A stretch of DNA of 64,000 nucleotides from Candidatus Nomurabacteria bacterium (lineage in GTDB: Bacteria > Patescibacteriota > Minisyncoccia > Phycocordibacterales > UBA9973). Positions within the stretch are counted from its first letter, which is position 1, and every line of letters starts with the position of its first letter. Below, piece by piece: positions 9,880 through 55,462 of the stretch. Location of the stretch: the NCBI GenBank assembly GCA_025361085.1, contig JANYAX010000012.1, positions 255 through 64,254 on the forward strand, given 5' to 3'. The notes beneath the pieces are model-generated. The model saw nothing but the letters and a program-made list of their open reading frames with translations. It ran no database searches and was not told where the DNA came from. Made by a program: the position numbers and the translations under genes.

Positions 9880-9912
9880 CCCCCAGATAGTGGCCTTGCC
9901 ACTATCTGGGGG
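9880..9912. repeat. Palindromic element copy 1 (CCCCCAGATAGTGGC-ctt-GCCACTATCTGGGGG); probable ftsH terminator
   Basis: Perfect 15-bp stem. The same element in inverted orientation is at 43396-43427. Confidence 0.7.
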
Positions 9913-9917
9913 AGTTT

Positions 9918-9985
9918 CGTATGTGTTATGTGTTATATGTTATATGTTATGCGTTATTCGTTATTCGTTATTCGTTATTTGTTTC
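9918..9985. repeat. Simple-sequence repeat tract (GTTAT hexamers followed by 3-4 x TTATTCG heptamers) spanning the ftsH stop codon
   Basis: Read directly: …tgttatgtgttatatgttatatgttatgcgttattcgttattcgttattcgttattt…. Confidence 0.6.
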
Positions 9986-40356: not shown

Positions 40357-40785
40357 TTATGCCACACTTCCACCAACTTTCTCTATTTTAGCACGTGCAC
40401 TTGCGGAAACCTTACAGCCAACAATAGAAAGTTTTTTACTTAATTCTCCTGTTCCAAGAATTTTAACTGCGGGGAAATTACCTCCAACACGACGAACCAA
40501 ACTCTTTTCGAATAGTGATGCTGGGTTTACAACTGCTCCAGATTCAAAAATATTTAATGCTGATACGTTTACTGGTGAGATTTTGATTGAAGCTGAATGA
40601 AAACGATACCCACGTAATTTTGGAATCTTCTTTATTATATCACGCATTTGTGGACGGCGCTTATTACCAGCACGAGCTGTCTGACCCTTGCCTCCACGTC
40701 CTGAAGTTTTACCACGTGTGCCACCACGTCCAACTTGCTTGGCTTTTTTATTTGGATTTTTTCTTTTTAATTCGTGTATTTGCAT
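40357..40785 (-). CDS. rplO: 50S ribosomal protein uL15
   Basis: Gly/Arg/Lys-rich N-terminus typical of L15. Confidence 0.9.
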   Translation of the reverse strand: MQIHELKRKNPNKKAKQVGRGGTRGKTSGRGGKGQTARAGNKRRPQMRDIIKKIPKLRGYRFHSASIKISPVNVSALNIFESGAVVNPASLFEKSLVRRVGGNFPAVKILGTGELSKKLSIVGCKVSASARAKIEKVGGSVA

Positions 40786-40797
40786 ATAATTTATTTA

Positions 40798-41418
40798 TTA
40801 TTTAACTTCTACCTTTGGAGTTTCTTCTGGAATAAATGCGCTCACTTTTACGGCTGATGTTTTTTCTTTGAGTATGTAAAGTGTCTTGTAAGCGGCACGA
40901 GCATTGTTCAATTTGTTTTTTGTTCCAGAGTGAAGTTTAGCTGTAACATTTTTGATACCAGCAAGAACTAACATATCGCGGACAGTACTTCCTGAAACCA
41001 ATCCTTTTCCTCTGTTTGGCATGATTGAAAGTTTTGCACTTCCAAATTTGGCAGAAACTTCATGGGGAATAGACATTTCTTTTGTTGTCTTTATCTTGAA
41101 CATATTTTTCTTTGCTTGGCGAAGAGCTTTCGCAATTGCAATAGCTGTGTCCCCACCCTTTCCTGTCCCAAGACCAACCGAACCCTTCTTATCACCTATC
41201 GCGATAGCAACTGCAAATGTCATACGACGTCCTCCTGCAACCACACGAGTAACGCGACGGATAGAAACCATCTTTTGGTCAAATTCTGGTTTGGGACGAT
41301 CAAAAGAAGGTCGTGATCTGCGATTGTCACCTCCTTCACGCTTAGCTCCATAAGTAGGTTTACTGAAACTTCGGTTATTGTTTGGTGTATTTGTTTTTGG
41401 TTTTGCTGTAGTATCCAT
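40798..41418 (-). CDS. rpsE: 30S ribosomal protein uS5 (N-terminal ~45-aa basic extension)
   Basis: dsRBD and S5 C-terminal domain. Confidence 0.9.
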   Translation of the reverse strand: MDTTAKPKTNTPNNNRSFSKPTYGAKREGGDNRRSRPSFDRPKPEFDQKMVSIRRVTRVVAGGRRMTFAVAIAIGDKKGSVGLGTGKGGDTAIAIAKALRQAKKNMFKIKTTKEMSIPHEVSAKFGSAKLSIMPNRGKGLVSGSTVRDMLVLAGIKNVTAKLHSGTKNKLNNARAAYKTLYILKEKTSAVKVSAFIPEETPKVEVK

Positions 41419-42317: not shown

Positions 42318-42707
42318 TTAATATAATTTAAACAATACTTCTCCTCCGACCATTTCTTTTTTTGCTTGTCTGTCAGTTAAAATGCCTTTTGGTGTAGAAA
42401 GTAATGTGAGACCAAAGCCATTGCGTGCTAGTCGAATTTCTTTCACACCTTTGTATACTCGGCATGATGATTTTGAAACTCTCTCTGCCCCTGTTATTTT
42501 TGGAGCACCGTCTTCTGTATAGGCCACTGTCAATTCCATAACAGGAAAACCCTTTTTTGTCTTTTTTGTAACAGCCTTAAGATACCCTTCTTTGACTAGG
42601 CATTCTGCGATTGCGAATTTGATTTTTGAATGAGGAACAACGACAACCTCATGCTCGGCACGGCCTGCGTTTTTCACCATATTTATCATGTTTGCGATTT
42701 GATCCAT
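42318..42707 (-). CDS. rpsH: 30S ribosomal protein uS8
   Basis: Conserved S8 N-terminus MDQIANMINMVKNAG starts at 42707. The longer ORF to 42764 adds 19 non-conserved residues. Confidence 0.85.
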   Translation of the reverse strand: MDQIANMINMVKNAGRAEHEVVVVPHSKIKFAIAECLVKEGYLKAVTKKTKKGFPVMELTVAYTEDGAPKITGAERVSKSSCRVYKGVKEIRLARNGFGLTLLSTPKGILTDRQAKKEMVGGEVLFKLY

Positions 42708-42726
42708 AATATAATTTTGTGCGTTA

Positions 42727-42759
42727 GGTTTTGCCTTTATTGAGTCCGAGGCAATTCCT
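42727..42759 (-). promoter_or_regulatory. Conserved ~33-nt element, copy A (GGTTTTGCCTTTATTGAGTCCGAGGCAATTCCT), in the unusually long rpsN-rpsH intergenic region
   Basis: A near-identical copy is at 43161-43194 (copy B). Confidence 0.4.
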
Positions 42760-42773
42760 AGCACTCTTTTAAT

Positions 42774-42959
42774 TTACCAACTTGATTTGCGAACTCCTGG
42801 AAGCATACCTTCATTGGCAAGCTCGCGGAAACAAATACGACATAGCCCGAAATCTCTCATATAGGCATGTCCTCGTGAACAACGAAAACAACGATTTGTT
42901 TCTCGTGTACTAAATTTTGACTTCTTTAAATGTCTTGCTGTGACTGATGTTTTTGCCAT
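42774..42959 (-). CDS. rpsN: 30S ribosomal protein uS14, Zn-ribbon type (type Z)
   Basis: 61 aa with CxxC…CxxC. Confidence 0.9.
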
Positions 42960-43133
42960 AAATTAAGGAATGAAATGACTATAATTTATGAGCATCCCGA
43001 CGTAAGGAGGGAGCCTTAAATTAAGGAATGAAATGACTATAATTTATGAGCATCCCGACGTAAGGAGGGAGCCATAAATTAAGGAATGAAATGACTATAA
43101 TTTACGAGCATCCCGACGTAAGGAGGGAGCCAT
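42960..43133. repeat. Tandem direct repeat, 3 x 58 bp, beginning at the rpsN start codon
   Basis: Unit AATTAAGGAATGAAATGACTATAATTTATGAGCATCCCGACGTAAGGAGGGAGCCNT at 42961, 43019 and 43077 with 1-2 mismatches. Contiguous, with no spacers. Confidence 0.85.
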
Positions 43134-43144
43134 AAATAAAATTA

Positions 43145-43212
43145 GCGAGTTTTCGGGAAAGGTTTTGCCTCTAAATGATCCCGAGGCAATTCCTTGAGGA
43201 GAAAACTCTCGC
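43145..43212 (-). promoter_or_regulatory. Conserved element copy B enclosed by an outer stem (GCGAGTTTTC … GAAAACTCTCGC)
   Basis: Core GGTTTTGCCTCTAAATGATCCCGAGGCAATTCCT is about 85% identical to copy A. Confidence 0.4.
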
Positions 43213-43395
43213 AAGTAGATATCTCGTTATTTTTCTTCTTATCCCTTCCCTAATCTTTTCAAGACGGGCAAAGAAGGAGAACAACGGATCAAAACTCACG
43301 TGTCCCTATACTAGCAAATCAGGTTAATATTGTCAAATTATTGTACGCGTCCACCACATATACCCTTCCTCTGTAACCCCTTATTTTCCAACCTT

Positions 43396-43427
43396 CTCCA
43401 GATAGTGGCAAGGCCACTATCTGGAGA
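43396..43427. repeat. Palindromic element copy 2 (TCTCCAGATAGTGGC-aagg-CCACTATCTGGAGA), in inverted orientation relative to copy 1
   Basis: Core CAGATAGTGGC…GCCACTATCTG shared with 9880-9912. Immediately downstream of the membrane-protein gene stop. Confidence 0.7.
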
Positions 43428-43436
43428 GCATTATAA

Positions 43437-43928
43437 TTATAGGGGTTTTTGGTATTTTTTTATTTGGTGTTCTCGCCAGATGAGCCAGAGGATTATGATA
43501 TCCATGACAGTTAAGACTATCAGCAAAATCGAATGGCCTTTGAAAATATGGTAAATTTGATAAATAATCAGACCTCCCAACCCTACGAGCGAAGCCGGGT
43601 AAGCCCAAGCTTTTCTTAAATATAACCCTGTAATGATTGCAACTTTTATAATTCCATGACTTAAAAGATAGTAGACGATAAATAACTTCCCTGTCGATGT
43701 TATATGATTAGCATTATTCACCAAGAAATTAGCAATGAAATTGTTGGGCTCTTCAATGAGCTCACTATGAGTTATAGTAACAAGGAAATTTATTATTCTG
43801 TTGGTACTGACAAAATACAAAAATAAAGCAGATACAACTTCAAGCGATGCTTGGATGAACTTGAGTAGCAAGCTCACATTGTAAGCGATGTAAATATTCT
43901 TTTCTTCCTTCGCCTTGGTCATGTGCAT
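43437..43928 (-). CDS. Small polytopic membrane protein (DUF2127-like), inserted within the spc ribosomal operon
   Basis: 163 aa, 4-5 TM helices. Located between rplE and rpsN, where no gene is normally found. Confidence 0.5.
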   Translation of the reverse strand: MHMTKAKEEKNIYIAYNVSLLLKFIQASLEVVSALFLYFVSTNRIINFLVTITHSELIEEPNNFIANFLVNNANHITSTGKLFIVYYLLSHGIIKVAIITGLYLRKAWAYPASLVGLGGLIIYQIYHIFKGHSILLIVLTVMDIIILWLIWREHQIKKYQKPL

Positions 43929-43997
43929 AGTGACATTATAACATTACAACAAAAAATAGCTCGAGACGAGCTATTTTTTGTCTTAATTTTTATTTGT

Positions 43998-44537
43998 TTA
44001 ATTTTTGAATGGAATTCCGATAAGTTTGAAAAATTCGGTAGCTTCGGCTTTATTCTTGGCAGTTGAGACGATTGTTACAGCTGAACCGAAAACGTCTTTC
44101 AATTCTTCGTCACCTGTTTCAGGGAAGATTGTGTGTTCTTTGATACTCATTGTTAGATTCCCAATATCATCAACAATCTTTTTATCAATACCGCGGAAGT
44201 CTTTCGTTCGAGGGATTGCAACATTGATAAGTTTGTCCAAGAATCCATACATGCGTGCACCACGAAGTGTGACCATCACCCCGACAGGGTCGCCAATACG
44301 AATCTTGAAACTTGCGATTGATTTCTTTGCGCTCTTTGTGGCTGGTTTTTGACCTGTGATTTTCGAAAGACGATCGATAACTAGCTTATTGTGATCTTTA
44401 TTACGTTTTATTCCTGAACCAGTACCAGAAGCAACAACCACCTTTACAAGGCGAGGTGCTGCCATTACATTCTTATAACCAAATTGGGTTTTAAGCGTGG
44501 TATATATTTTTTTCTCTTTTTGTTTAACTGTTTCCAT
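43998..44537 (-). CDS. rplE: 50S ribosomal protein uL5
   Basis: Typical L5. Confidence 0.9.
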   Translation of the reverse strand: METVKQKEKKIYTTLKTQFGYKNVMAAPRLVKVVVASGTGSGIKRNKDHNKLVIDRLSKITGQKPATKSAKKSIASFKIRIGDPVGVMVTLRGARMYGFLDKLINVAIPRTKDFRGIDKKIVDDIGNLTMSIKEHTIFPETGDEELKDVFGSAVTIVSTAKNKAEATEFFKLIGIPFKN

Positions 44538-47020: not shown

Positions 47021-47365
47021 TTATTTTTTCTTTGAGTCAACCGCGGCCTTAGCGGATTTCGATGCAGTAATTTCGGCCTCTTTCTTCTTTATCTCTAATT
47101 CTTTCTGCATCTTACCTCCATGTCGGACGAACTTGCGTGTCAGTGAAAATTCTCCAAGTCTGTGCCCTACCATATCTTCGCTGACCAGAACCTCTACGTG
47201 AGTTTTACCATTGTGGACACCAAATACGAATCCAACCATTTCAGGAGAGATAACGCATGCACGTGACCAGGTTTTAATCATACCAGTCTCGAGTGGTTTC
47301 TTGCCGGCAATCTTTTTCAAGAGCCTTTCATCAACATATGGGCCTTTTTTAAGTGATCTTGTCAT
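47021..47365 (-). CDS. rpsS: 30S ribosomal protein uS19
   Basis: [18 protein letters not shown]…. Confidence 0.95.
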
Positions 47366-47444
47366 CTGATTATTTTAGTTTTGTAAATATAAATAAGCTC
47401 TTTTGAGCTCGTTCGTCTATACTATCAAATATAAAATAAAAGTC

Positions 47445-47476
47445 AAATCCCCAGAGATGATGGTCTCTGGGGATTT
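47445..47476. terminator. Terminator hairpin (AAATCCCCAGAGA…TCTCTGGGGATTT) between pyrD and rpsS
   Basis: 13-bp perfect stem. Confidence 0.65.
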
Positions 47477-47491
47477 ATGTTAGTTGTGTTT

Positions 47492-48511
47492 TTAATACCT
47501 TTTTCGAAAAAGAACTTTGGCCGTCAGAATAATAAACGGCAAATTCCATAAGCGCAAAGAAATGCATGATCCCAATGAAATAGCATTAGCTCCCGCTTTT
47601 TTGAATTGCCATACATTGTATGGGTTCATAATACCGCCACCACCAATTATCGGCTTCGTTATACCCATTCTCCTAGCTTCTCTTATCCATGCCAAGGCAT
47701 AAGGTCTGATCGGATGTCCGGACACACCTCCACGTCCTTTGATTAAAAACTGATCCTGATGTTTGTCGAGGGGAGAAACACGATGGCCGAATTGCTTATC
47801 TTTTTTGAAATATTTCTCCTTAACAAAATCGGGTAGTTCATTGAACAGGATTGTATTTATGGCAGTGAACCCATAAATGTATTTAAGCTCTTGCAACCGC
47901 AAAGCAACTTCAATCGGGAACTGCCACCCAACTTTAACGATAATGGGTAATTCGAGCTGTGAAAGAATCGCATACTCTGGGATAAAACTTTCCAAAAAAT
48001 TGGCAAGAGCATTATGCCCGGTGTTTGGACAAGAAATATTCCAATTCAAGAATATTTTAGAAGCAGAAAATTTATGAAGATTTTCTTTCAGAAGCAATAC
48101 GATAAGCCTTGCTTCCCCTGTTCTTTCCTCAGCAGTATCTCCCACTAACATTATTGAAAGATGAAGCTCTCCTTTTATTTTATAGAGCTTACCTTGTCTA
48201 AGGATGGGGCCCAATCCAGGACCGGAAAGTGAAAAGTTATTCACCATCCAGCCTTTCCAAAAATTTAACCCCACACACTTGGGGAACATCTTTTCAAGAG
48301 AGTAGCCATCCGAGGCAAGTTGCGCATTACCAATTCTTTTGGTCGCCGTCGAGGTTTTGGATTGAAATGTAACCCAATTCCGAAGAATTAGTCCAAACAA
48401 CCCAAGGGTCAGAATGTTCAGGAGAAGATAATGTTTATAACCCTCCCCCATAAAACCCAAGCTACCAGACGCAGCTATCACAGGTTTAGCAAAATAATGA
48501 TGTTTCTTCAT
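47492..48511 (-). CDS. pyrD: Dihydroorotate dehydrogenase-family TIM-barrel flavoenzyme (PyrD-like)
   Basis: NISCPNTG active-site loop, GGGGI phosphate-binding motif. Confidence 0.6.
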   Translation of the reverse strand: MKKHHYFAKPVIAASGSLGFMGEGYKHYLLLNILTLGLFGLILRNWVTFQSKTSTATKRIGNAQLASDGYSLEKMFPKCVGLNFWKGWMVNNFSLSGPGLGPILRQGKLYKIKGELHLSIMLVGDTAEERTGEARLIVLLLKENLHKFSASKIFLNWNISCPNTGHNALANFLESFIPEYAILSQLELPIIVKVGWQFPIEVALRLQELKYIYGFTAINTILFNELPDFVKEKYFKKDKQFGHRVSPLDKHQDQFLIKGRGGVSGHPIRPYALAWIREARRMGITKPIIGGGGIMNPYNVWQFKKAGANAISLGSCISLRLWNLPFIILTAKVLFRKRY

Positions 48512-48671
48512 GATTCTTTTTTATTAAGTTTTGTTTATTATTTCAATTAGTTCAATTAAGGAATACCACAAAATCACCAAAGTAGCAAATACTACTTTTG
48601 ACAAAAAATTATCAAGATGTAGTATAAGGAAAAACGAAAAATAATTTCTAAACTCTTTATAAATCAATACA

Positions 48672-49778
48672 ATGAAAAAATCATTTCAAATCTTGTTGCC
48701 TTTTGACAGGCACGGCCACTTGCGTGAAGTAAATACGCTTATGCCTGAAGTCCTGATTCATTCACTGAAAAGTTTTTGGGGTATGGTTGTTATGCCAAAT
48801 ACTGCTATCCCAATTACTGATTATGAATCTGCAGTGCGTTATCGTGAAGAAATAAAAACCCTAAGCAATAAGTATGGGTTTGGGGGGAATTTCCTTCCGG
48901 TCATGACTGGCTACCTGACCGACAATACAAATCCGGAAAATGTAAAGAGCGGATTTCTAAATGGTGCATGGAAAGCCATGAAACTCTATCCACACGGTGC
49001 GACAACAAACTCCGACAAAGGTGTTACTAAACTGGAAAAAATATTTCCGGTATTAGAAATGATGCAAAAAATCGGAATGTCGGTGCTTGTTCATCCAGAA
49101 ACAGATGTTTCAAGGAGCGATATTCCATTCATGGACAGAGAGCGCGTATACACAGAAGAGTCATTGTTTTTAATCCATGAACGTTTTCCTGAATTAACCA
49201 TTTCGGTTGAACACATTTCAACCCGAGAAGCCATGGAATTTGTTGAGTGGTGTCCAGATAATGTTGTTGGAACAATAACTCCGCAACATATCATGTATAC
49301 ACATGATGCACTTTTCCATAATGGAGTCCCCCCGTTTAAACCAGGGCTCTACCCTGAGAATATGTGCTTGCCGATACTAAAAACACAGGATGATGTAAAT
49401 TACATCCGAAATGCCATCATGCACGGAGAGAGAAGATACAAATTCGGAGCTGGGACAGATACTGCACCTCACACCCAAACAGCAAAGAAAGAAAACTGTA
49501 GCAGATGTGGGGTGTTCAATGCCTCACACGCCGTTGAGTTCTACACCATGATCTTTGACCAGGAAGGGATGCTAAACGATGAGAAAGGAATTCAAACTTT
49601 CCAAAACTTTATGTCCGTAAACAATTTATGGATTTATGGAATTAAAGAATTTCCAACTGAAATGATCACTCTGGTAAAAGAAGATCAGCAAATCCCTGAA
49701 ATTTATCCGGGAGACATTCGACCTTTCAAAGCCGGTCAGACTATCCCTTGGACAATGAAAAGGGAGTTGATTAAATAA
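48672..49778 (+). CDS. pyrC: Dihydroorotase (amidohydrolase family)
   Basis: FDRHGHLRE metal-binding motif, VMPNT motif, additional His ligands. Confidence 0.7.
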   Translation: MKKSFQILLPFDRHGHLREVNTLMPEVLIHSLKSFWGMVVMPNTAIPITDYESAVRYREEIKTLSNKYGFGGNFLPVMTGYLTDNTNPENVKSGFLNGAWKAMKLYPHGATTNSDKGVTKLEKIFPVLEMMQKIGMSVLVHPETDVSRSDIPFMDRERVYTEESLFLIHERFPELTISVEHISTREAMEFVEWCPDNVVGTITPQHIMYTHDALFHNGVPPFKPGLYPENMCLPILKTQDDVNYIRNAIMHGERRYKFGAGTDTAPHTQTAKKENCSRCGVFNASHAVEFYTMIFDQEGMLNDEKGIQTFQNFMSVNNLWIYGIKEFPTEMITLVKEDQQIPEIYPGDIRPFKAGQTIPWTMKRELIK

Positions 49779-49799
49779 AATTGATTAAAAAACCTATAA

Positions 49800-49832
49800 A
49801 GAACCCCGCGAACACTGCGGGGTTTTCATTTG
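49800..49832 (+). terminator. Rho-independent terminator (AACCCCGCGAACACTGCGGGGTT + T-rich)
   Basis: Hairpin after the pyrC stop. Confidence 0.65.
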
Positions 49833-49892
49833 GCTTAATTTGACAAAAACCTGTGAAAATATAAGATGTGGGAAAACTAATCCTTAAAAAAT

Positions 49893-50624
49893 ATGGTTCC
49901 AGAAGAAAGATTTAATTCGAAAGAAATCAGCAAAGCGATAGCTTTGGCTGGGTTAAAGATCGGGGCAGTTAAAATAAGACCAGAGGATCCCTTTTTGTGG
50001 GCATCGGGTACTTATAACCCGATCTACAATGACAATCGGAGGTTTTTGTTTTATCCGGCATATCGCGAACTCATTACAAATGGGTTTGCCGAAATTATTT
50101 ACAAATTGGGTTTACATACAAATCCTAATTTAGTAATCGCTGGTACTTCAACCGCAGGGATTCCCCATGGATCCGCCCTTGCTACAAAACTTCACGTCCC
50201 CTTTATCTACATCCGGGATAAGCCGAAGGATCATGGACTCAAAAACCAAATCGAGGGAATTGATGTGGACGAAGATCTCAAAGGTTATCACGTCGTATTA
50301 ATCGAGGACTTAATTTCGACAGGGGGCAGTAGTGTCGCTGCAATTGCTGCAATACGAAACGCCAGCGGTTCCTGCAACTTATGTCTTTCGATTTTTAATT
50401 ACGGATTACCGAACCCCCCAAAAATGTTTAATGGAGATATCCCTTATAACGAAAAGGGAGATCGGCTACAAAGCCCCTGTGAAATAACTTCTTTACTTTA
50501 CTATCCTAAGCTGATATCCATAGGGATAGAAAAAGGATTAGTGAGTAAAAATCACGAGAAAACATTACTAGAGTGGATGAGTAATCAACCACACTGGGGT
50601 GAAAATCACGGATTCGTCCGATAA
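49893..50624 (+). CDS. pyrE: Orotate phosphoribosyltransferase (type I PRTase)
   Basis: PRPP-binding motif VVLIEDLISTGGS. Confidence 0.7.
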   Translation: MVPEERFNSKEISKAIALAGLKIGAVKIRPEDPFLWASGTYNPIYNDNRRFLFYPAYRELITNGFAEIIYKLGLHTNPNLVIAGTSTAGIPHGSALATKLHVPFIYIRDKPKDHGLKNQIEGIDVDEDLKGYHVVLIEDLISTGGSSVAAIAAIRNASGSCNLCLSIFNYGLPNPPKMFNGDIPYNEKGDRLQSPCEITSLLYYPKLISIGIEKGLVSKNHEKTLLEWMSNQPHWGENHGFVR

Positions 50625-50666
50625 AAAAAGAGCGCGCAGATACAATCTTGCGCGCTTTGTTTTTTC
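50624..50666. terminator. Bidirectional terminator (AGCGCGCA … TGCGCGCT flanked by A-run and T-run) between convergent pyrE and pyrF
   Basis: Hairpin with flanking A-run and T-run. Confidence 0.7.
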
Positions 50667-50674
50667 CTTCAGAA

Positions 50675-51460
50675 TTACTTTTCAATTTCTGCCATTGTCA
50701 ATCGGCAACTTTCTTCGGCACCTATACCAAGTTGCAAATTGCCTTTGGTTAATTGAGCTCCCATGACAACAAAAGTAGCTCCTAGATCAAGAGCTTCTCG
50801 GACTCCTGTTGTTCGTTTTTGGTGTTCGCCGGCCTTTTCCATCCATTTATCACGGATACCTGGGACAACAAAACCGCAACCAGCATAACAATTGAGATGA
50901 AGCATTGAAAGCTCGTGAGCTGAACATACAACCAGATCGTATGGCTCGGGGTTAATGTCTTTCTCAAATTTGATCTTCTTTTGATAGAATGAACGAAGCC
51001 GATCAATGTCAGAATAAATCTTATCAGCTGGGGTCATTCCAAAACGATCGACACATTCATCTTCACTTATATCAGTCGGTAGTGAGACCATCGCCAATTT
51101 GGTATTTGGCAATAACTTCCGAAGTTCAATGATGCCGGCGACGCTACATCCTGAAGATACAGTCAGGATGTTGGCTGGTGTATTTAAGTATTTTCTTAAT
51201 ACATTTACCAATGTGGCCGAAACATCGAAAATCTTTAAATCCAGGAAAAATCCGATCGGTAAACCTTTCCCTTTTAGACACTGCACAATCTCTTCGACGA
51301 TTTGTGGACCACCCAGATCCAAGTTGTGAACTCCGTCATTCAGTTTGATGTGAGAAATGATGTCCGTTAGACCTTTTATGTTTAGTGTCTTTTCAAGGGC
51401 ACCAAACAATGCGGCGGCTGTGGCATAGCCGTCGAGAGGAAGAATTGCTACTCTTTTCAT
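50675..51460 (-). CDS. pyrF: Orotidine-5'-phosphate decarboxylase
   Basis: DLKIFD (DxKxxD) catalytic motif. TIM-barrel length. Confidence 0.65.
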   Translation of the reverse strand: MKRVAILPLDGYATAAALFGALEKTLNIKGLTDIISHIKLNDGVHNLDLGGPQIVEEIVQCLKGKGLPIGFFLDLKIFDVSATLVNVLRKYLNTPANILTVSSGCSVAGIIELRKLLPNTKLAMVSLPTDISEDECVDRFGMTPADKIYSDIDRLRSFYQKKIKFEKDINPEPYDLVVCSAHELSMLHLNCYAGCGFVVPGIRDKWMEKAGEHQKRTTGVREALDLGATFVVMGAQLTKGNLQLGIGAEESCRLTMAEIEK

Positions 51461-51541
51461 AATAAATTGATTAATTTTAAATAACTAGATTTTTATTAGT
51501 TCAACCCTATTACAACTAATTAACTGTCTGAAAACAAAATG

Positions 51542-51772
51542 TTAACAAATTAAAATAGTGTACCGACAGTTTTGTTGATACCACATTTGTCTTAACCGTC
51601 GTATCTTCCTACGAGAAAAAAATCTGAAATCGCCATAGAACGCATATTCATTCCATTTGCGACGAAGTTCTTTTTTGAAAGATTTTTTACTCCCAAAAAA
51701 GACAAGAAGCTTTTCTGAGTTGTCACTCAATCCAAGGTTCTTATTCCGGATATTAGATAACAATTTCATCAT
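51542..51772 (-). CDS. Small basic hypothetical protein (76 aa)
   Basis: ORF only. No recognisable motifs. Confidence 0.2.
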   Translation of the reverse strand: MMKLLSNIRNKNLGLSDNSEKLLVFFGSKKSFKKELRRKWNEYAFYGDFRFFSRRKIRRLRQMWYQQNCRYTILIC

Positions 51773-51894
51773 TTAATATCGTCTTCTAAATTTTTTCATT
51801 TTCAAGATTTTAAGTTAAATTTATCTTAACATTATTCTTTTTCCCCTTTTTGTCAAATAGAAAATGGGCCATAACGACCCATTAACTTAAAATT

Positions 51895-52116
51895 TTACCC
51901 AACTGATCTGCCAAAATTACTAAAACTAAAACTCCGCATCCTCTTCTGCAACCTCAGAACGACTTCTACTAAGTGTTCATAGGCAATCCTTTGCGATTCA
52001 TAATCGCCATTCGGAAAAGGATTTTCATCAAGATATTTCCTAAGTTCGAGTTGAAGATCCTCTTCTTCTTTTCTATTTCTTGCGTGCATTTTTGCGACGC
52101 TTTCTTGTGTTGCCAT
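51895..52116 (-). CDS. Small hypothetical protein (73 aa)
   Basis: ORF only. Charged helical composition. Confidence 0.25.
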   Translation of the reverse strand: MATQESVAKMHARNRKEEEDLQLELRKYLDENPFPNGDYESQRIAYEHLVEVVLRLQKRMRSFSFSNFGRSVG

Positions 52117-52232
52117 TTTGTGAAAAATTAATAATTTTATTTGATACTACAATTATCAGTAATTTAAGTCAAATAAACAACTGTAACACTTACAAACGGC
52201 CGTTGCTATCTGTTACAAAAATCATGTACATC

Positions 52233-52258
52233 AAAAAACTCCCCGAAGGGAGTTTTTT
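52233..52258. terminator. Bidirectional terminator (AAAAAACTCCC-cgaa-GGGAGTTTTTT) downstream of rplB
   Basis: Perfect stem with an A-run and a T-run. Confidence 0.7.
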
Positions 52259-52346
52259 GATGATAGAATTTTTGTTGTTATTAAGACTTCTTTGTTTTTC
52301 CTCTGCCTGCGCAAGCGGGCAACCTTTTGGCAAAAATAATTTTTCT

Positions 52347-53198
52347 CTACTTATTATTTTTAGTTTTACCGACACGTCTTCGACTGACAATCCACATGTT
52401 TGAATACTTCTTTGGTGTTCTTGTTTTTTGGCCTTTTCCTGTTGGTTTACCCCACATACTTTTGGCTCGGCGTAGTCCGCGTCCTTGGCGTCCTTCACCT
52501 CCACCGTGTGGGTGATCAACTGGGTTCATCGCAGTACCACGAACAGTTGGGCGAATACCCTTCCAACGTGAGCGTCCTGCTTTCCCAAAATTTTGAAGTT
52601 TATATTCACTATTTGAAACTTCTCCAATAGAAGCCCAAGCATTTTCTTGAACTTTTCTGACTTCAGTTGATGGCATTTTGATATTGGTATAACCAAGATC
52701 ATTTGCGACAACTTGTCCGAACGTTCCAGCCGAGCGTGCGAGCTTGCCACCATTGCCTGGTTTGATTTCAATATTGTAAACAAATGTTCCAATTGGAATT
52801 ATTCGAAGTGGTAATCTGTTCCCAATTGTAAGAGGAGCTTTTTCTGAAACGATGAAAATATCTCCAACTTTCATTGACTTAGGGACGATAACGTATCTTT
52901 TCTCTCCATCGGCGTAACAAGCAAGACTGATGAATGCATTACGATTTGGATCATACTCAATTGAAGTTATCTTCGCAGGGATATCATGCTTGTTGTACAT
53001 GAAATCTATCTCACGATAAAGACGCTTGTGACCACCCCCTTTGTGGCGAGTAGTGATACGCCCTTGATTATTTCTTCCAACTGAACGTTTGAAACCTTTT
53101 GTTAAAGATTTCTCCGGAGTACCTTTGGTCAATACATTTCTGTAAGTGACAGTAGTCTGGTGACGTTTTGCTGGACTTGTAGGTCTATATGTTTTCAT
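52347..53198 (-). CDS. rplB: 50S ribosomal protein uL2
   Basis: 283 aa, typical L2. Confidence 0.95.
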   Translation of the reverse strand: MKTYRPTSPAKRHQTTVTYRNVLTKGTPEKSLTKGFKRSVGRNNQGRITTRHKGGGHKRLYREIDFMYNKHDIPAKITSIEYDPNRNAFISLACYADGEKRYVIVPKSMKVGDIFIVSEKAPLTIGNRLPLRIIPIGTFVYNIEIKPGNGGKLARSAGTFGQVVANDLGYTNIKMPSTEVRKVQENAWASIGEVSNSEYKLQNFGKAGRSRWKGIRPTVRGTAMNPVDHPHGGGEGRQGRGLRRAKSMWGKPTGKGQKTRTPKKYSNMWIVSRRRVGKTKNNK

Positions 53199-55382: not shown

Positions 55383-55387
55383 AAAGG

Positions 55388-55445
55388 TTAGGTTCTAAGT
55401 TCTAGCTTCTAGCTTCTAATATTTCTATTATTAGAAGCTAGCGAC
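55388..55445. terminator. Hairpin / direct-repeat region between tuf and rpsJ (TAGCTTCTAATA…TATTAGAAGCTA), likely a tuf terminator or S10-operon attenuator
   Basis: Stem of about 11 bp plus TTCTAGC direct repeats. Confidence 0.5.
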
Positions 55446-55462
55446 TAGTTACTAACAACTAA

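Follow-up and report, generated by a model that had tools for sequence, protein, structure and literature searches.

Here we report a conserved promoter and a conserved structured leader upstream of the ribosomal protein gene rpsN (S14) of a Candidatus Nomurabacteria bacterium, in a stretch of 64,000 nucleotides of contig JANYAX010000012.1 (assembly GCA_025361085.1) that is referred to as the window below. Judged by sequence comparison, this leader is a previously uncatalogued leader of the ribosomal protein (r-protein) type, and it is the part of our results of widest general interest. For the junction between rplE (L5) and rpsN as a whole, we consider it likely that a regulated break point common to the clade is combined with a slot for variable cargo genes and with a recent duplication of the rpsN start region. 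According to this explanation, rplE would close its own transcription unit by means of an intrinsic terminator, here and in many relatives, and rpsN and the genes that follow would be transcribed from their own conserved promoter into an mRNA that opens with the folded leader.

Results

A conserved promoter and structured leader precede rpsN

Two elements lie directly upstream of rpsN in all relatives aligned.

43308 to 43336, minus strand: promoter of the rpsN unit, of the sigma-70 type (TTGACA and TAGTAT, separated by a spacer of 17 nt that ends in TGC).
43206 to 43307, minus strand: conserved structured leader, identified by alignment, covariation, a covariance model and minimum free energy (MFE) folding.

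The comparison was based on 80 further loci obtained by a scan of GTDB species representatives and titled Candidatus Nomurabacteria, Paceibacteria or Paceibacterota, with some auto-labelled Saccharibacteria. L5, S14 and S8 were located in each locus by tblastn, and 79 loci contain both rplE and rpsN. An L5 homologue search gave only relatives of at least 85% identity; the outer phylogenetic limit of the leader lies outside its reach. In a promoter scan, the promoter in the window has 10 of 12 matches with a TG, and its counterparts in the relatives follow the pattern TTGAC(A/T)-N14-TGnTAGTAT.

The leader is 74-115 nt long across relatives. In an alignment of 54 distinct leader sequences (alignment A2), GAUC toward the 5' end and GAUAUC toward the 3' end are invariant (43290-43287 and 43223-43218 in the window), and UCUCCUUAAG and UUUAAGAAAA, located between them, are nearly so. 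RNAalifold predicted AUC/GAU pairing, a one-base bulge, a 6-bp helix P1, a UCUC/AAAA internal loop and an 8-bp helix P2 with a variable apex. Compensatory changes were found in 12 of the 17 leader pairs. In a structure-independent MAFFT alignment, cells were paired in 95.8% of cases, compared with 79.2% in shuffles and 33-58% when partners were slid, and the covariation score was 0.439 compared with 0.140, with none of 500 shuffles reaching 0.439.

A further helix, P0, is formed by 5-9 nt ending 1-5 nt before GAUC and by nucleotides starting 0-3 nt past GAUAUC (43300-43294 paired with 43216-43210 in the window). The arms of P0 covary between genomes (CATGAG/CTCATG, GTGAGT/ACTCAC, ATAGGT/ACCTAT, ATAGAT/ATCTAT and TAGAG/CTCTA; CGTGAGT/ACTTGCG in the window). 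Pairing between the two flanks of the same sequence scored 5.56, compared with 3.84 +/- 0.19 for permuted flanks, and 0 of 5000 position-constrained permutations reached this score. Because linker lengths vary, P0 was not recovered by MAFFT and RNAalifold on extended sequences. The MFE structure of the window leader, calculated from this single sequence, is the same P0-P1-P2 fold. We rejected a small hairpin after GAUAUC in minimal leaders as an independent P3, given that its 5' arm is the 3' arm of P0. In the proposed structure, P0, P1 and P2 would stack around the invariant GAUC/GAUAUC internal loop and the UCUC/AAAA loop.

A covariance model made from the alignment matched the window leader with 65 bits, which was its sole match in the 64 kb. 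Over approximately 82 loci (1.1 Mb), the model gave about one match per locus, always upstream of rpsN and on the coding strand; the only other forward-strand match was a partial second one in locus L030, beside a scaffold gap. No Rfam 15 family matched in a gathering scan of the whole window or in a permissive scan of positions 42600-44100, which returned just chance matches of the miRNA or snoRNA type. In the literature searched, neither an rpsN/rpsH leader nor an r-protein leader from the Candidate Phyla Radiation (CPR) is described, and the r-protein leaders compiled by Eckert & Weinberg 2020 include no rpsN/rpsH leader and no CPR motif (PMC7247131). The element is positioned in the 5' untranslated region (UTR) before r-protein genes, and its structure is supported by covariation in P0, P1 and P2. 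The combination of a clade-specific structure at the start of an r-protein mRNA and an internal loop of invariant sequence flanked by covarying helices is the hallmark of autoregulatory r-protein leaders.

A gap between rplE and rpsN is common to the clade

The ribosomal genes in the window are on the minus strand, and the gene order of the rpsN unit is rpsN-rpsH-rplF-rplR-rpsE-rplO-secY and onward. In addition to the promoter and the leader, the following features make up the junction, given here in the direction of transcription.

43998 to 44537, minus strand: rplE, ribosomal protein L5 (Pfam Ribosomal_L5 and Ribosomal_L5_C), the final gene of the upstream transcription unit.
43949 to 43981, minus strand: intrinsic-terminator-like hairpin 3' of rplE (terminator scan; fold of -21.5 kcal/mol, z=-8.1).
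43935 to 43943, minus strand: extended -10 promoter-like box TGTTATAAT for the DUF2127 gene, read from the sequence.
43437 to 43928, minus strand: gene for a DUF2127 predicted membrane protein of 163 aa (PF09900, E=6e-28).
43394 to 43428, no strand assigned: palindrome resembling repetitive extragenic palindromic (REP) elements, with a 16-bp stem and a 3-nt loop, just past the DUF2127 stop (-29 kcal/mol, z=-7.3).
43145 to 43212, minus strand: long hairpin of 68 nt, P3, between the leader and the start region (-24 kcal/mol, z=-3.1).
42955 to 43137, minus strand: tandem array of 58 bp x 3.2 (Tandem Repeats Finder score 352, 97% matches).
42774 to 42959, minus strand: rpsN, zinc-binding S14 of 61 aa (Pfam Ribosomal_S14).
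42719 to 42764, minus strand: hairpin in the rpsN-rpsH spacer (-15.8 kcal/mol, z=-3.6; core 42726-42759).
42318 to 42707, minus strand: rpsH, S8 (Pfam Ribosomal_S8, E=1e-35), the second gene of the rpsN unit; its product is the candidate ligand of the leader.

The gap, 42960-43997, comprises 1,038 nt of noncoding sequence and cargo. It begins with the terminator-like hairpin, the TGTTATAAT box, the DUF2127 open reading frame (ORF) and the palindrome, and continues with the promoter, the leader of about 100 nt, the 68-nt hairpin and the tandem repeat, which runs into rpsN and takes in the rpsN ATGGC. Several of these parts had been recognized in an initial annotation of this DNA, and we confirm its descriptions of about 1 kb between rplE and rpsN, of a gene for a 163-aa membrane protein, of a palindrome with a second copy near ftsH (at 9881-9911), of a structured element of about 70 nt (the 68-nt hairpin), of a duplicated leader element (43160-43194, repeated at 42726-42759) and of a 58-bp tandem repeat. 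The conserved element formed by the promoter (43336-43308) together with the structured leader (43307-43206) had been omitted.

The initial annotation also took it as the norm that rplE is followed directly by rpsN. This is not the case in the clade examined here, where the two genes are 138-4149 nt apart in 79 of 79 loci containing both, with a minimum of 138 nt. In about 25 genomes the gap is 138-300 nt long and contains no gene, and the remaining genomes carry cargo. The S14-S8 spacer measures 5-138 nt in all loci except L018, in which it is 251 nt long and includes a scaffold gap. An S14 protein identical to that of the window is on record in 352 index blocks of a public contig collection, and in seven such places among the matches listed, rplE and rpsN are separated by 0.9-3.6 kb of unrelated genes.

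The hairpin at 43949-43981 consists of an A-tract, a GC stem and a U-tract, corresponding to the GC-containing stem-loop and U-run of a Rho-independent terminator. Since the A-tract and the U-tract flank the stem, it could terminate transcription in both directions. Terminators are present 3' of rplE in many genomes, all closest relatives included, and the first seven relatives inspected all have an equivalent hairpin after rplE. A simple terminator count of 32 of 79 loci is an undercount and is used here as a lower bound from which no percentage is drawn. About a dozen compact genomes, in which the -35 box of the rpsN promoter is located 2-10 nt past the rplE stop, contain no terminator between rplE and this promoter, and they weigh against a complete separation of two transcription units as a general rule. 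In these genomes the split is only an internal promoter with a leader. The universal feature is therefore the internal promoter together with the leader, and the full split is confined to a part of the clade. Because the gap, the promoter and the leader are common to related genomes, with terminators in many of these, the comparison indicates that the break between rplE and rpsN is older than the clade and is regulated.

Cargo genes differ between genomes

The DUF2127 match in the window scores 98.3 bits, compared with a Pfam gathering cutoff of 24.3, and covers profile positions 4-139 of 140. The NCBI annotation places the start of this protein at the second methionine, resulting in 161 aa. 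The last base of the TGTTATAAT box is 6 nt before the first ATG of the ORF, and the DUF2127 mRNA may be leaderless. The box was not listed by the consensus promoter scan because it is without a -35 box. The cargo of the window would thus consist of one DUF2127 gene, preceded by an extended -10 box of its own and followed by a palindromic hairpin at the 3' end.

At the rplE-rpsN site, DUF2127 is present only in the species of the window and is absent from every other locus compared. Its nearest homologues are 53-60% identical and located in unrelated neighbourhoods, and the GC content of the cargo is below that of the flanks. Across genomes, 107 cargo ORFs with a length of 70 aa or more were counted; they form 69 similarity clusters, and 91 of them are co-directional. 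Most are without a Pfam match, and several representatives have a hydrophobic, signal-peptide-like N-terminus. Instead of DUF2127, a patatin-like gene together with four small ORFs occupies the gap in the genomes whose L5 is closest (92% identity), and in one genome recG follows rplE on the opposite strand. Scanning of cargo genes against Pfam identified no integrase or transposase domains, and no inverted repeats bracketing the DUF2127 segment were found; the segment does not qualify as an insertion sequence, a miniature inverted-repeat transposable element or an integron cassette. A slot between the rplE terminator and the rpsN promoter would tolerate the gain and loss of genes, because the essential downstream genes would need no read-through from rplE.

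Palindromes and spacer hairpins

The palindrome at the 3' end of the DUF2127 gene has one further copy in the window.

9881 to 9911, no strand assigned: second palindrome copy, 57 nt past the stop codon of ftsH.

The identity of ftsH is backed by Pfam Peptidase_M41 and AAA. The second copy contains compensatory changes at the base of the stem. As an imperfect, extragenic palindrome located at the 3' ends of genes, the 35-nt element is REP-like; it has two copies in the 64-kb window and none in the loci of other species, and no transposase of the type associated with REP elements (RAYT) was seen. The copy at 43394-43428 is probably a transcript end or stabilizer. Between the ftsH stop region and the palindrome at 9881-9911 we also observed nine copies of a 7-nt tandem repeat, TATTTGT (window 9920-9983; also scored with a 21-nt period).

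The apex of P3 (43160-43194) is repeated in the rpsN-rpsH spacer at 42726-42759, with identical blocks of 14/14 and 10/10 nt, and the 14-mer does not occur elsewhere in the window at 0 mismatches. Homologues of both hairpins are present at the same two places in L030 (82% L5 identity). Being common to this other species, P3 and the spacer hairpin are inherited and are not recent debris. The two copies of a genome have the same arm variant, namely TTGCCTCGG for the window and TTGCTTTGG for L030, which suggests exchange between the copies (gene conversion) or a constraint common to both.

In other genomes, these two spacers are occupied by a palindrome family (CCACAGGTCCGACCTAGGG...), found at either spacer depending on the genome, or by CTAG-rich periodic repeats of 14 nt. 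The presence of differing palindromes at the same sites identifies both spacers as recurrent landing sites of self-folding elements. The palindrome family has the form CC[AC][CT]AGGTC.GACCT.GGG.C ... reverse complement and is positioned, according to the genome, in the rpsN-rpsH spacer or in the spacer from the leader to the start codon; examples are L003 6186-6269, the S14-S8 spacer of L039, and the leader-to-ATG spacers of L009, L014 and L018. In its distribution the family resembles a small mobile palindrome that favors two sites. Short CTAG-rich or AATTAG-rich repeats with a period of about 14 nt (ACTAGAAACTAATT, AATTAGTAATCAGT) recur in ribosomal-cluster spacers throughout the clade, for example at window 55387-55456, after rplE in L004, in the leader spacers of L007, L011, L021 and L023, and in the S14-S8 spacers of L018, L019, L034 and L042. 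Scaffold gaps (runs of N) at approximately 6772-6868 of L030 and in the S14-S8 spacer of L018 are flanked by duplicated leader or rpsH-start sequence, reflecting either assembler trouble at repeated start regions or more tandem duplications.

A copy-variable duplication of the rpsN start region

None of 100 shuffles gave a match to a tandem array like that at 42955-43137. On the minus strand the repeat unit reads TCCCTCCTTACGTCGGGATGCTCATAAATTATAGTCATTTCATTCCTTAATTTATGGC, and each unit consists of a small hairpin (UCCC/GGGA), a hairpin GCUCAUAAAUUA/UAAUUUAUGGC and ATGGC. In predicted folds the next AUG is sequestered in the 3' arm of the GCUCAUAAAUUA/UAAUUUAUGGC hairpin. Since the unit contains the rpsN start codon plus two bases (ATGGC), the array duplicates the translation start. 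The junction between copies 2 and 3 (43017-43015) reads AAG, not AUG.

A model of the window with one copy of the unit aligns over its full length with the UTR next to rpsN in L022, and the 3' 43 nt of the unit are identical to the single copy of L098. This homology to native single-copy UTRs led us to reject the unit as a foreign mini-element with a target-site duplication. The periodic region measures 3 x 58 + 9 nt, from which it follows that the single-copy ancestor contained AUUUAUGGC at both ends, at the start of an upstream open reading frame (uORF) and at the start of rpsN. The array would arise by slippage or unequal exchange between these two 9-nt direct repeats. The number of units differs between genomes as follows.

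L030 (82% L5 identity to the window): 0 units; P3 is directly followed by the rpsN start.
L022, L098 and L099 (90-92% L5 identity): 1 unit.
L031 (77% L5 identity): 2 diverged units, about 70% alike by eye, with the same AUGGCUCCC junction.
L092 (GCA_043723505.1; conspecific, 99.9% identical over 6.4 kb): 2 units.
Genome of the window: 3 units.

No comparable array was found in any further locus compared. L092 and the window share a copy-specific single-nucleotide polymorphism (SNP), CGT then CAT, and an array of at least 2 units is thus reproducible between the two conspecific assemblies. The repeat is recent, and its copy number is variable, with 2 or 3 units in the species. Head-to-tail copies, microhomology at the boundaries and 2 versus 3 copies in conspecific assemblies with flanks of 99.9% identity are the features of a variable number tandem repeat (VNTR).

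The third copy, with its AAG junction, is either a real allele or an assembly choice, the comparison being between two assemblies. More generally, strain variants of one or two units could have been chained by the assembler, so that the tandem repeat, or its third copy, would be an artefact. Consistent with such an artefact, the two assemblies of the same species disagree, the AAG junction is all that distinguishes the extra copy, scaffold gaps are present at comparable repeats in L030 and L018, and short-read Logan contigs of the same species (L001, L002, L090 and L091) break at the palindrome or inside rpsN and leave the array unspanned. A scan of a metagenome collection with a 23-mer from the repeat unit gave 0 matches. 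Samples SRR23617164 and SRR23617162 contain the species of the window. By contrast, at least two head-to-tail units with the same CGT-then-CAT polymorphism are held independently by both assemblies, the AUGGCUCCC junction is present also in L031, and an array of just 183 bp with copy-specific SNPs has resolvable paths. We therefore regard an artefact as quite unlikely.

The origin of the repeat also bears on the proposal of the initial annotation that the region is a junction left by insertion or recombination inside an essential operon. A part of this proposal holds. A gene was inserted here, given that DUF2127 is restricted to one species at this site and has homologues in unrelated neighbourhoods, and the tandem repeat is a product of local duplication or recombination with 2 versus 3 copies. 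Comparison of orthologous junctions, which had been suggested as a check, identified the cargo as species-specific and the gap itself as clade-wide. Relatives with the same architecture did not have invariant repeats; these vary from 0 to 3 units. In its strict form, the proposal would imply that a single recent insertion or recombination event, possibly involving a mobile element, broke a contiguous rplE-rpsN operon and left the repeats as scars. The restriction of DUF2127 to one species, the 9-nt direct repeat AUUUAUGGC flanking the repeat unit and the low GC content of the cargo are in agreement with this. However, the gap, the promoter and the leader are present in about 80 species, cargo-free ones included (about 79 related genomes in addition to the window, which leaves no single event in a continuous operon), the cargo representatives scanned contain no integrase or transposase, the repeat unit is native UTR sequence and not foreign DNA, and P3 and the spacer hairpin also occur in L030, at variance with recent debris. 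Judging from the alignments, an insertion scar is already contradicted by the comparative data, and we consider it highly improbable.

Upstream open reading frames in the repeat units

Two short uORFs were read from the sequence of the array.

43095 to 43133, minus strand: uORF1, 12 codons (MAPSLRRDARKL, then a stop), starting at the first ATGGC.
43037 to 43075, minus strand: uORF2, 12 codons (MAPSLRRDAHKL, then a stop).

Both uORFs terminate immediately past the 5' arm of the hairpin in which the next AUG is contained, at a distance of 19 nt upstream of this AUG. L022 and L098 contain an 18-codon uORF ending at the same UUA-UAG as the uORFs of the window, and the first uORF of L031 stops inside the corresponding hairpin arm. 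In L031 (6880-7010), no stop codon separates rpsN from an in-frame AUGGCUCCC start upstream of it, and S14 of this genome could have an N-terminal extension of 19 aa. With the stop codons placed in this way, a relay of translation seems possible. A ribosome terminating at a uORF stop would expose the next AUG, and translation would be passed from unit to unit to rpsN. The arrangement is suggestive of translational coupling that is passed on to rpsN from the start nearest the leader. Such a relay is intact in the 2-copy allele, and its interruption by AAG in the 3-copy allele is a point against it. A copy-variable duplication of the start region of an essential gene represents a small natural experiment in translation initiation.

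Other features of the ribosomal gene cluster

No rpmD (L30) is present between rpsE and rplO (window 40357-41418), which fits a CPR organism. We observed no Shine-Dalgarno sequence at the start regions of rpsN, rpsH and rplF in the window. A first interruption of the ribosomal cluster, of about 5 kb (window 47366-52346), lies between rplB (52347-53198) and rpsS (47021-47365). According to Pfam, the genes in it encode a dihydroorotate-dehydrogenase-like protein, a phosphoribosyltransferase and a protein weakly similar to orotidine monophosphate (OMP) decarboxylase, next to a 368-aa ORF without a Pfam match. In relatives, the rplB-rpsS junction contains genes for diacylglycerol kinase, a dihydroorotase-like protein, and peptidase S8 or PKD-domain proteins. 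This junction looks like a second variable slot in the clade.

Discussion

Almost nothing is known about how CPR bacteria, which are extremely small and largely uncultured, control the synthesis of their ribosomes. Our analysis adds a structured leader that is well supported and present in at least 80 species, together with a specific and testable hypothesis on its ligand, S8. It also explains the presence of variable accessory genes at one defined point of the most conserved gene cluster of bacteria. In Nomurabacteria, breaks at the rplE-rpsN and rplB-rpsS junctions are to be expected and are not misassemblies, and this is of importance for annotation and for phylogenomic pipelines that rely on a syntenic ribosomal block.

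Based on its position and conserved structure, the leader most likely binds a ribosomal protein encoded downstream for feedback control. Among these proteins, S8 is the best candidate, which we put forward tentatively and at somewhat less than even confidence. S8 of E. coli is a documented repressor of the spc operon that binds a mimic of helix 21 at the rplE start, and S8 is the sole protein of the spc operon with a documented autoregulatory role in bacteria (PMC3616713). The natural S8 site consists of an asymmetric loop with the pair U598-A640 and bulged U641 and A642, followed by G597-C643 and A596-U644 (PMC4176348). In the crystal structure of an in vitro-selected aptamer, RNA-2, bound by S8 of Bacillus anthracis and obtained by SELEX, the pairs are G13-C28, A14-U27 and U15-A24, followed by C16, and U25 and A26 are bulged, with A26 replacing A642 (PMC4176348). 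The leader can form C-G, U-A, a bulged UA, and then A-U and G-C, which are the very pairs of this crystal structure. Its core letters GAUC/GAUAUC are the same as those of the aptamer (5' GAUC, 3' AUAUC), and like helix 21 of the 16S rRNA, this core is an asymmetric internal loop between two covarying helices.

Several observations weigh against S8 as the ligand. The core of the natural rRNA site is AAGU/AUACU, not GAUC/GAUAUC, and the case for S8 is made from the resemblance to an artificial aptamer. The nucleotide 5' of GAUC, equivalent to A595, is not conserved, and the UCUC/AAAA loop is without a counterpart in the minimal S8 site. A search of the metagenome collection for a 16S-like helix-21 core of the form GAUC/GAUAUC gave 0 matches, with a pattern that may not fit CPR 16S, and exact rRNA mimicry is thus unsupported. 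No 16S sequence was found in the collected loci, and the comparison with S8 sites covered the natural site and the aptamer. The leader and the AUG are separated by 24-40 nt in most genomes, by as much as 141 nt in others and by 258 nt in the window, so that simple steric occlusion of the start is doubtful. Many of the longer spacers are largely hairpin-forming, with one long hairpin in L009, L014 and L018. A folded spacer hairpin would hold its ends close to each other; several long spacers are more complex.

It is thus conceivable that the leader is real and is not an S8 operator, and that it binds S14, L6, L18, S5 or L15 instead, or acts as a riboswitch, a processing site or an attenuator. 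In addition to the unlike core with its variable position 595 and the wide variation in spacing, the highly conserved UCUCCUUAAG / UUUAAGAAAA segment, which has no counterpart in the minimal S8 site, is in favor of a different function, and many spacers consist of a hairpin followed by a U-rich tract, compatible with attenuation. Against this stand the documented bacterial autoregulation by S8 alone among the proteins of the spc operon, the exact agreement of the 10 invariant nucleotides of the leader with the core of the S8-bound aptamer, and a context of exclusively ribosomal-protein genes, which is atypical of metabolite riboswitches. On balance, we judge a function other than that of an S8 operator to be somewhat unlikely.

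Going further, the leader could be a natural S8 operator that employs a non-canonical GAU/AUAUC core for a CPR-specific feedback on the spc genes, relayed through the uORF chain and tuned by the number of 58-nt copies (0-3). This combined scheme is speculative, and we hold it to be unlikely in its entirety. If true, S8 recognition through GAU/AUAUC, so far known only from an in vitro-selected aptamer, would occur in nature. Feedback on the spc operon would then be an independent, CPR-specific invention, with S14 and S8 synthesis tuned by the gain and loss of modules.

Comparison with known systems

The S8 operator of the E. coli spc operon and the Nomurabacteria leader are both cis-acting structured mRNA elements within the series of spc genes, and in both cases the unit contains the S8 gene further downstream. 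Both have an asymmetric loop between variable helices, with a U-A pair, a UA bulge and two more pairs. By contrast, the E. coli operator covers the rplE start, whereas the leader is positioned before rpsN, downstream of rplE and after a promoter of its own. In the core of the leader, A-U and G-C replace G597-C643 and A596-U644, and the core of the E. coli type, A595.(A596-U644), (G597-C643).U641 and A642, is absent; the corresponding leader core is GAUC/GAUAUC. The leader further contains an additional bulge and, as a second conserved loop, UCUC/AAAA. The two elements are not homologous in sequence, and the E. coli element is restricted to Gammaproteobacteria (PMC3616713).

The pairing letters of the S8-bound core of aptamer RNA-2 are equal to the invariant GAUC/GAUAUC of the leader (PMC4176348). 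The aptamer differs in being artificial and in having a symmetric loop. Moreover, RNA-2 needs G11 and U12, which take part in a base triple and a quartet, and the equivalents of these nucleotides are not conserved in the leader. By comparison with the r-protein leaders in Rfam and in Eckert & Weinberg 2020 (PMC7247131), the rpsN leader is similar in being a conserved 5' UTR structure of r-protein genes found in one clade, and it differs from this catalogue in matching no Rfam 15 model.

The 35-nt palindrome is similar to REP and other small palindromic extragenic elements in its two copies with compensatory stems at the 3' ends of genes, and the hairpins that fill the leader-to-AUG and rpsN-rpsH spacers likewise behave as dispersed palindromes. 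REP elements differ from it in number, given the just two copies of the palindrome in 64 kb. The tandem array, finally, resembles VNTR duplications formed by slipped-strand events, with head-to-tail copies, 9-nt microhomology at the boundaries and a copy number that differs between conspecific assemblies. In contrast to these, its unit carries the start codon, a uORF and the start-codon hairpin of an essential gene, and copy number may therefore change the control of translation.

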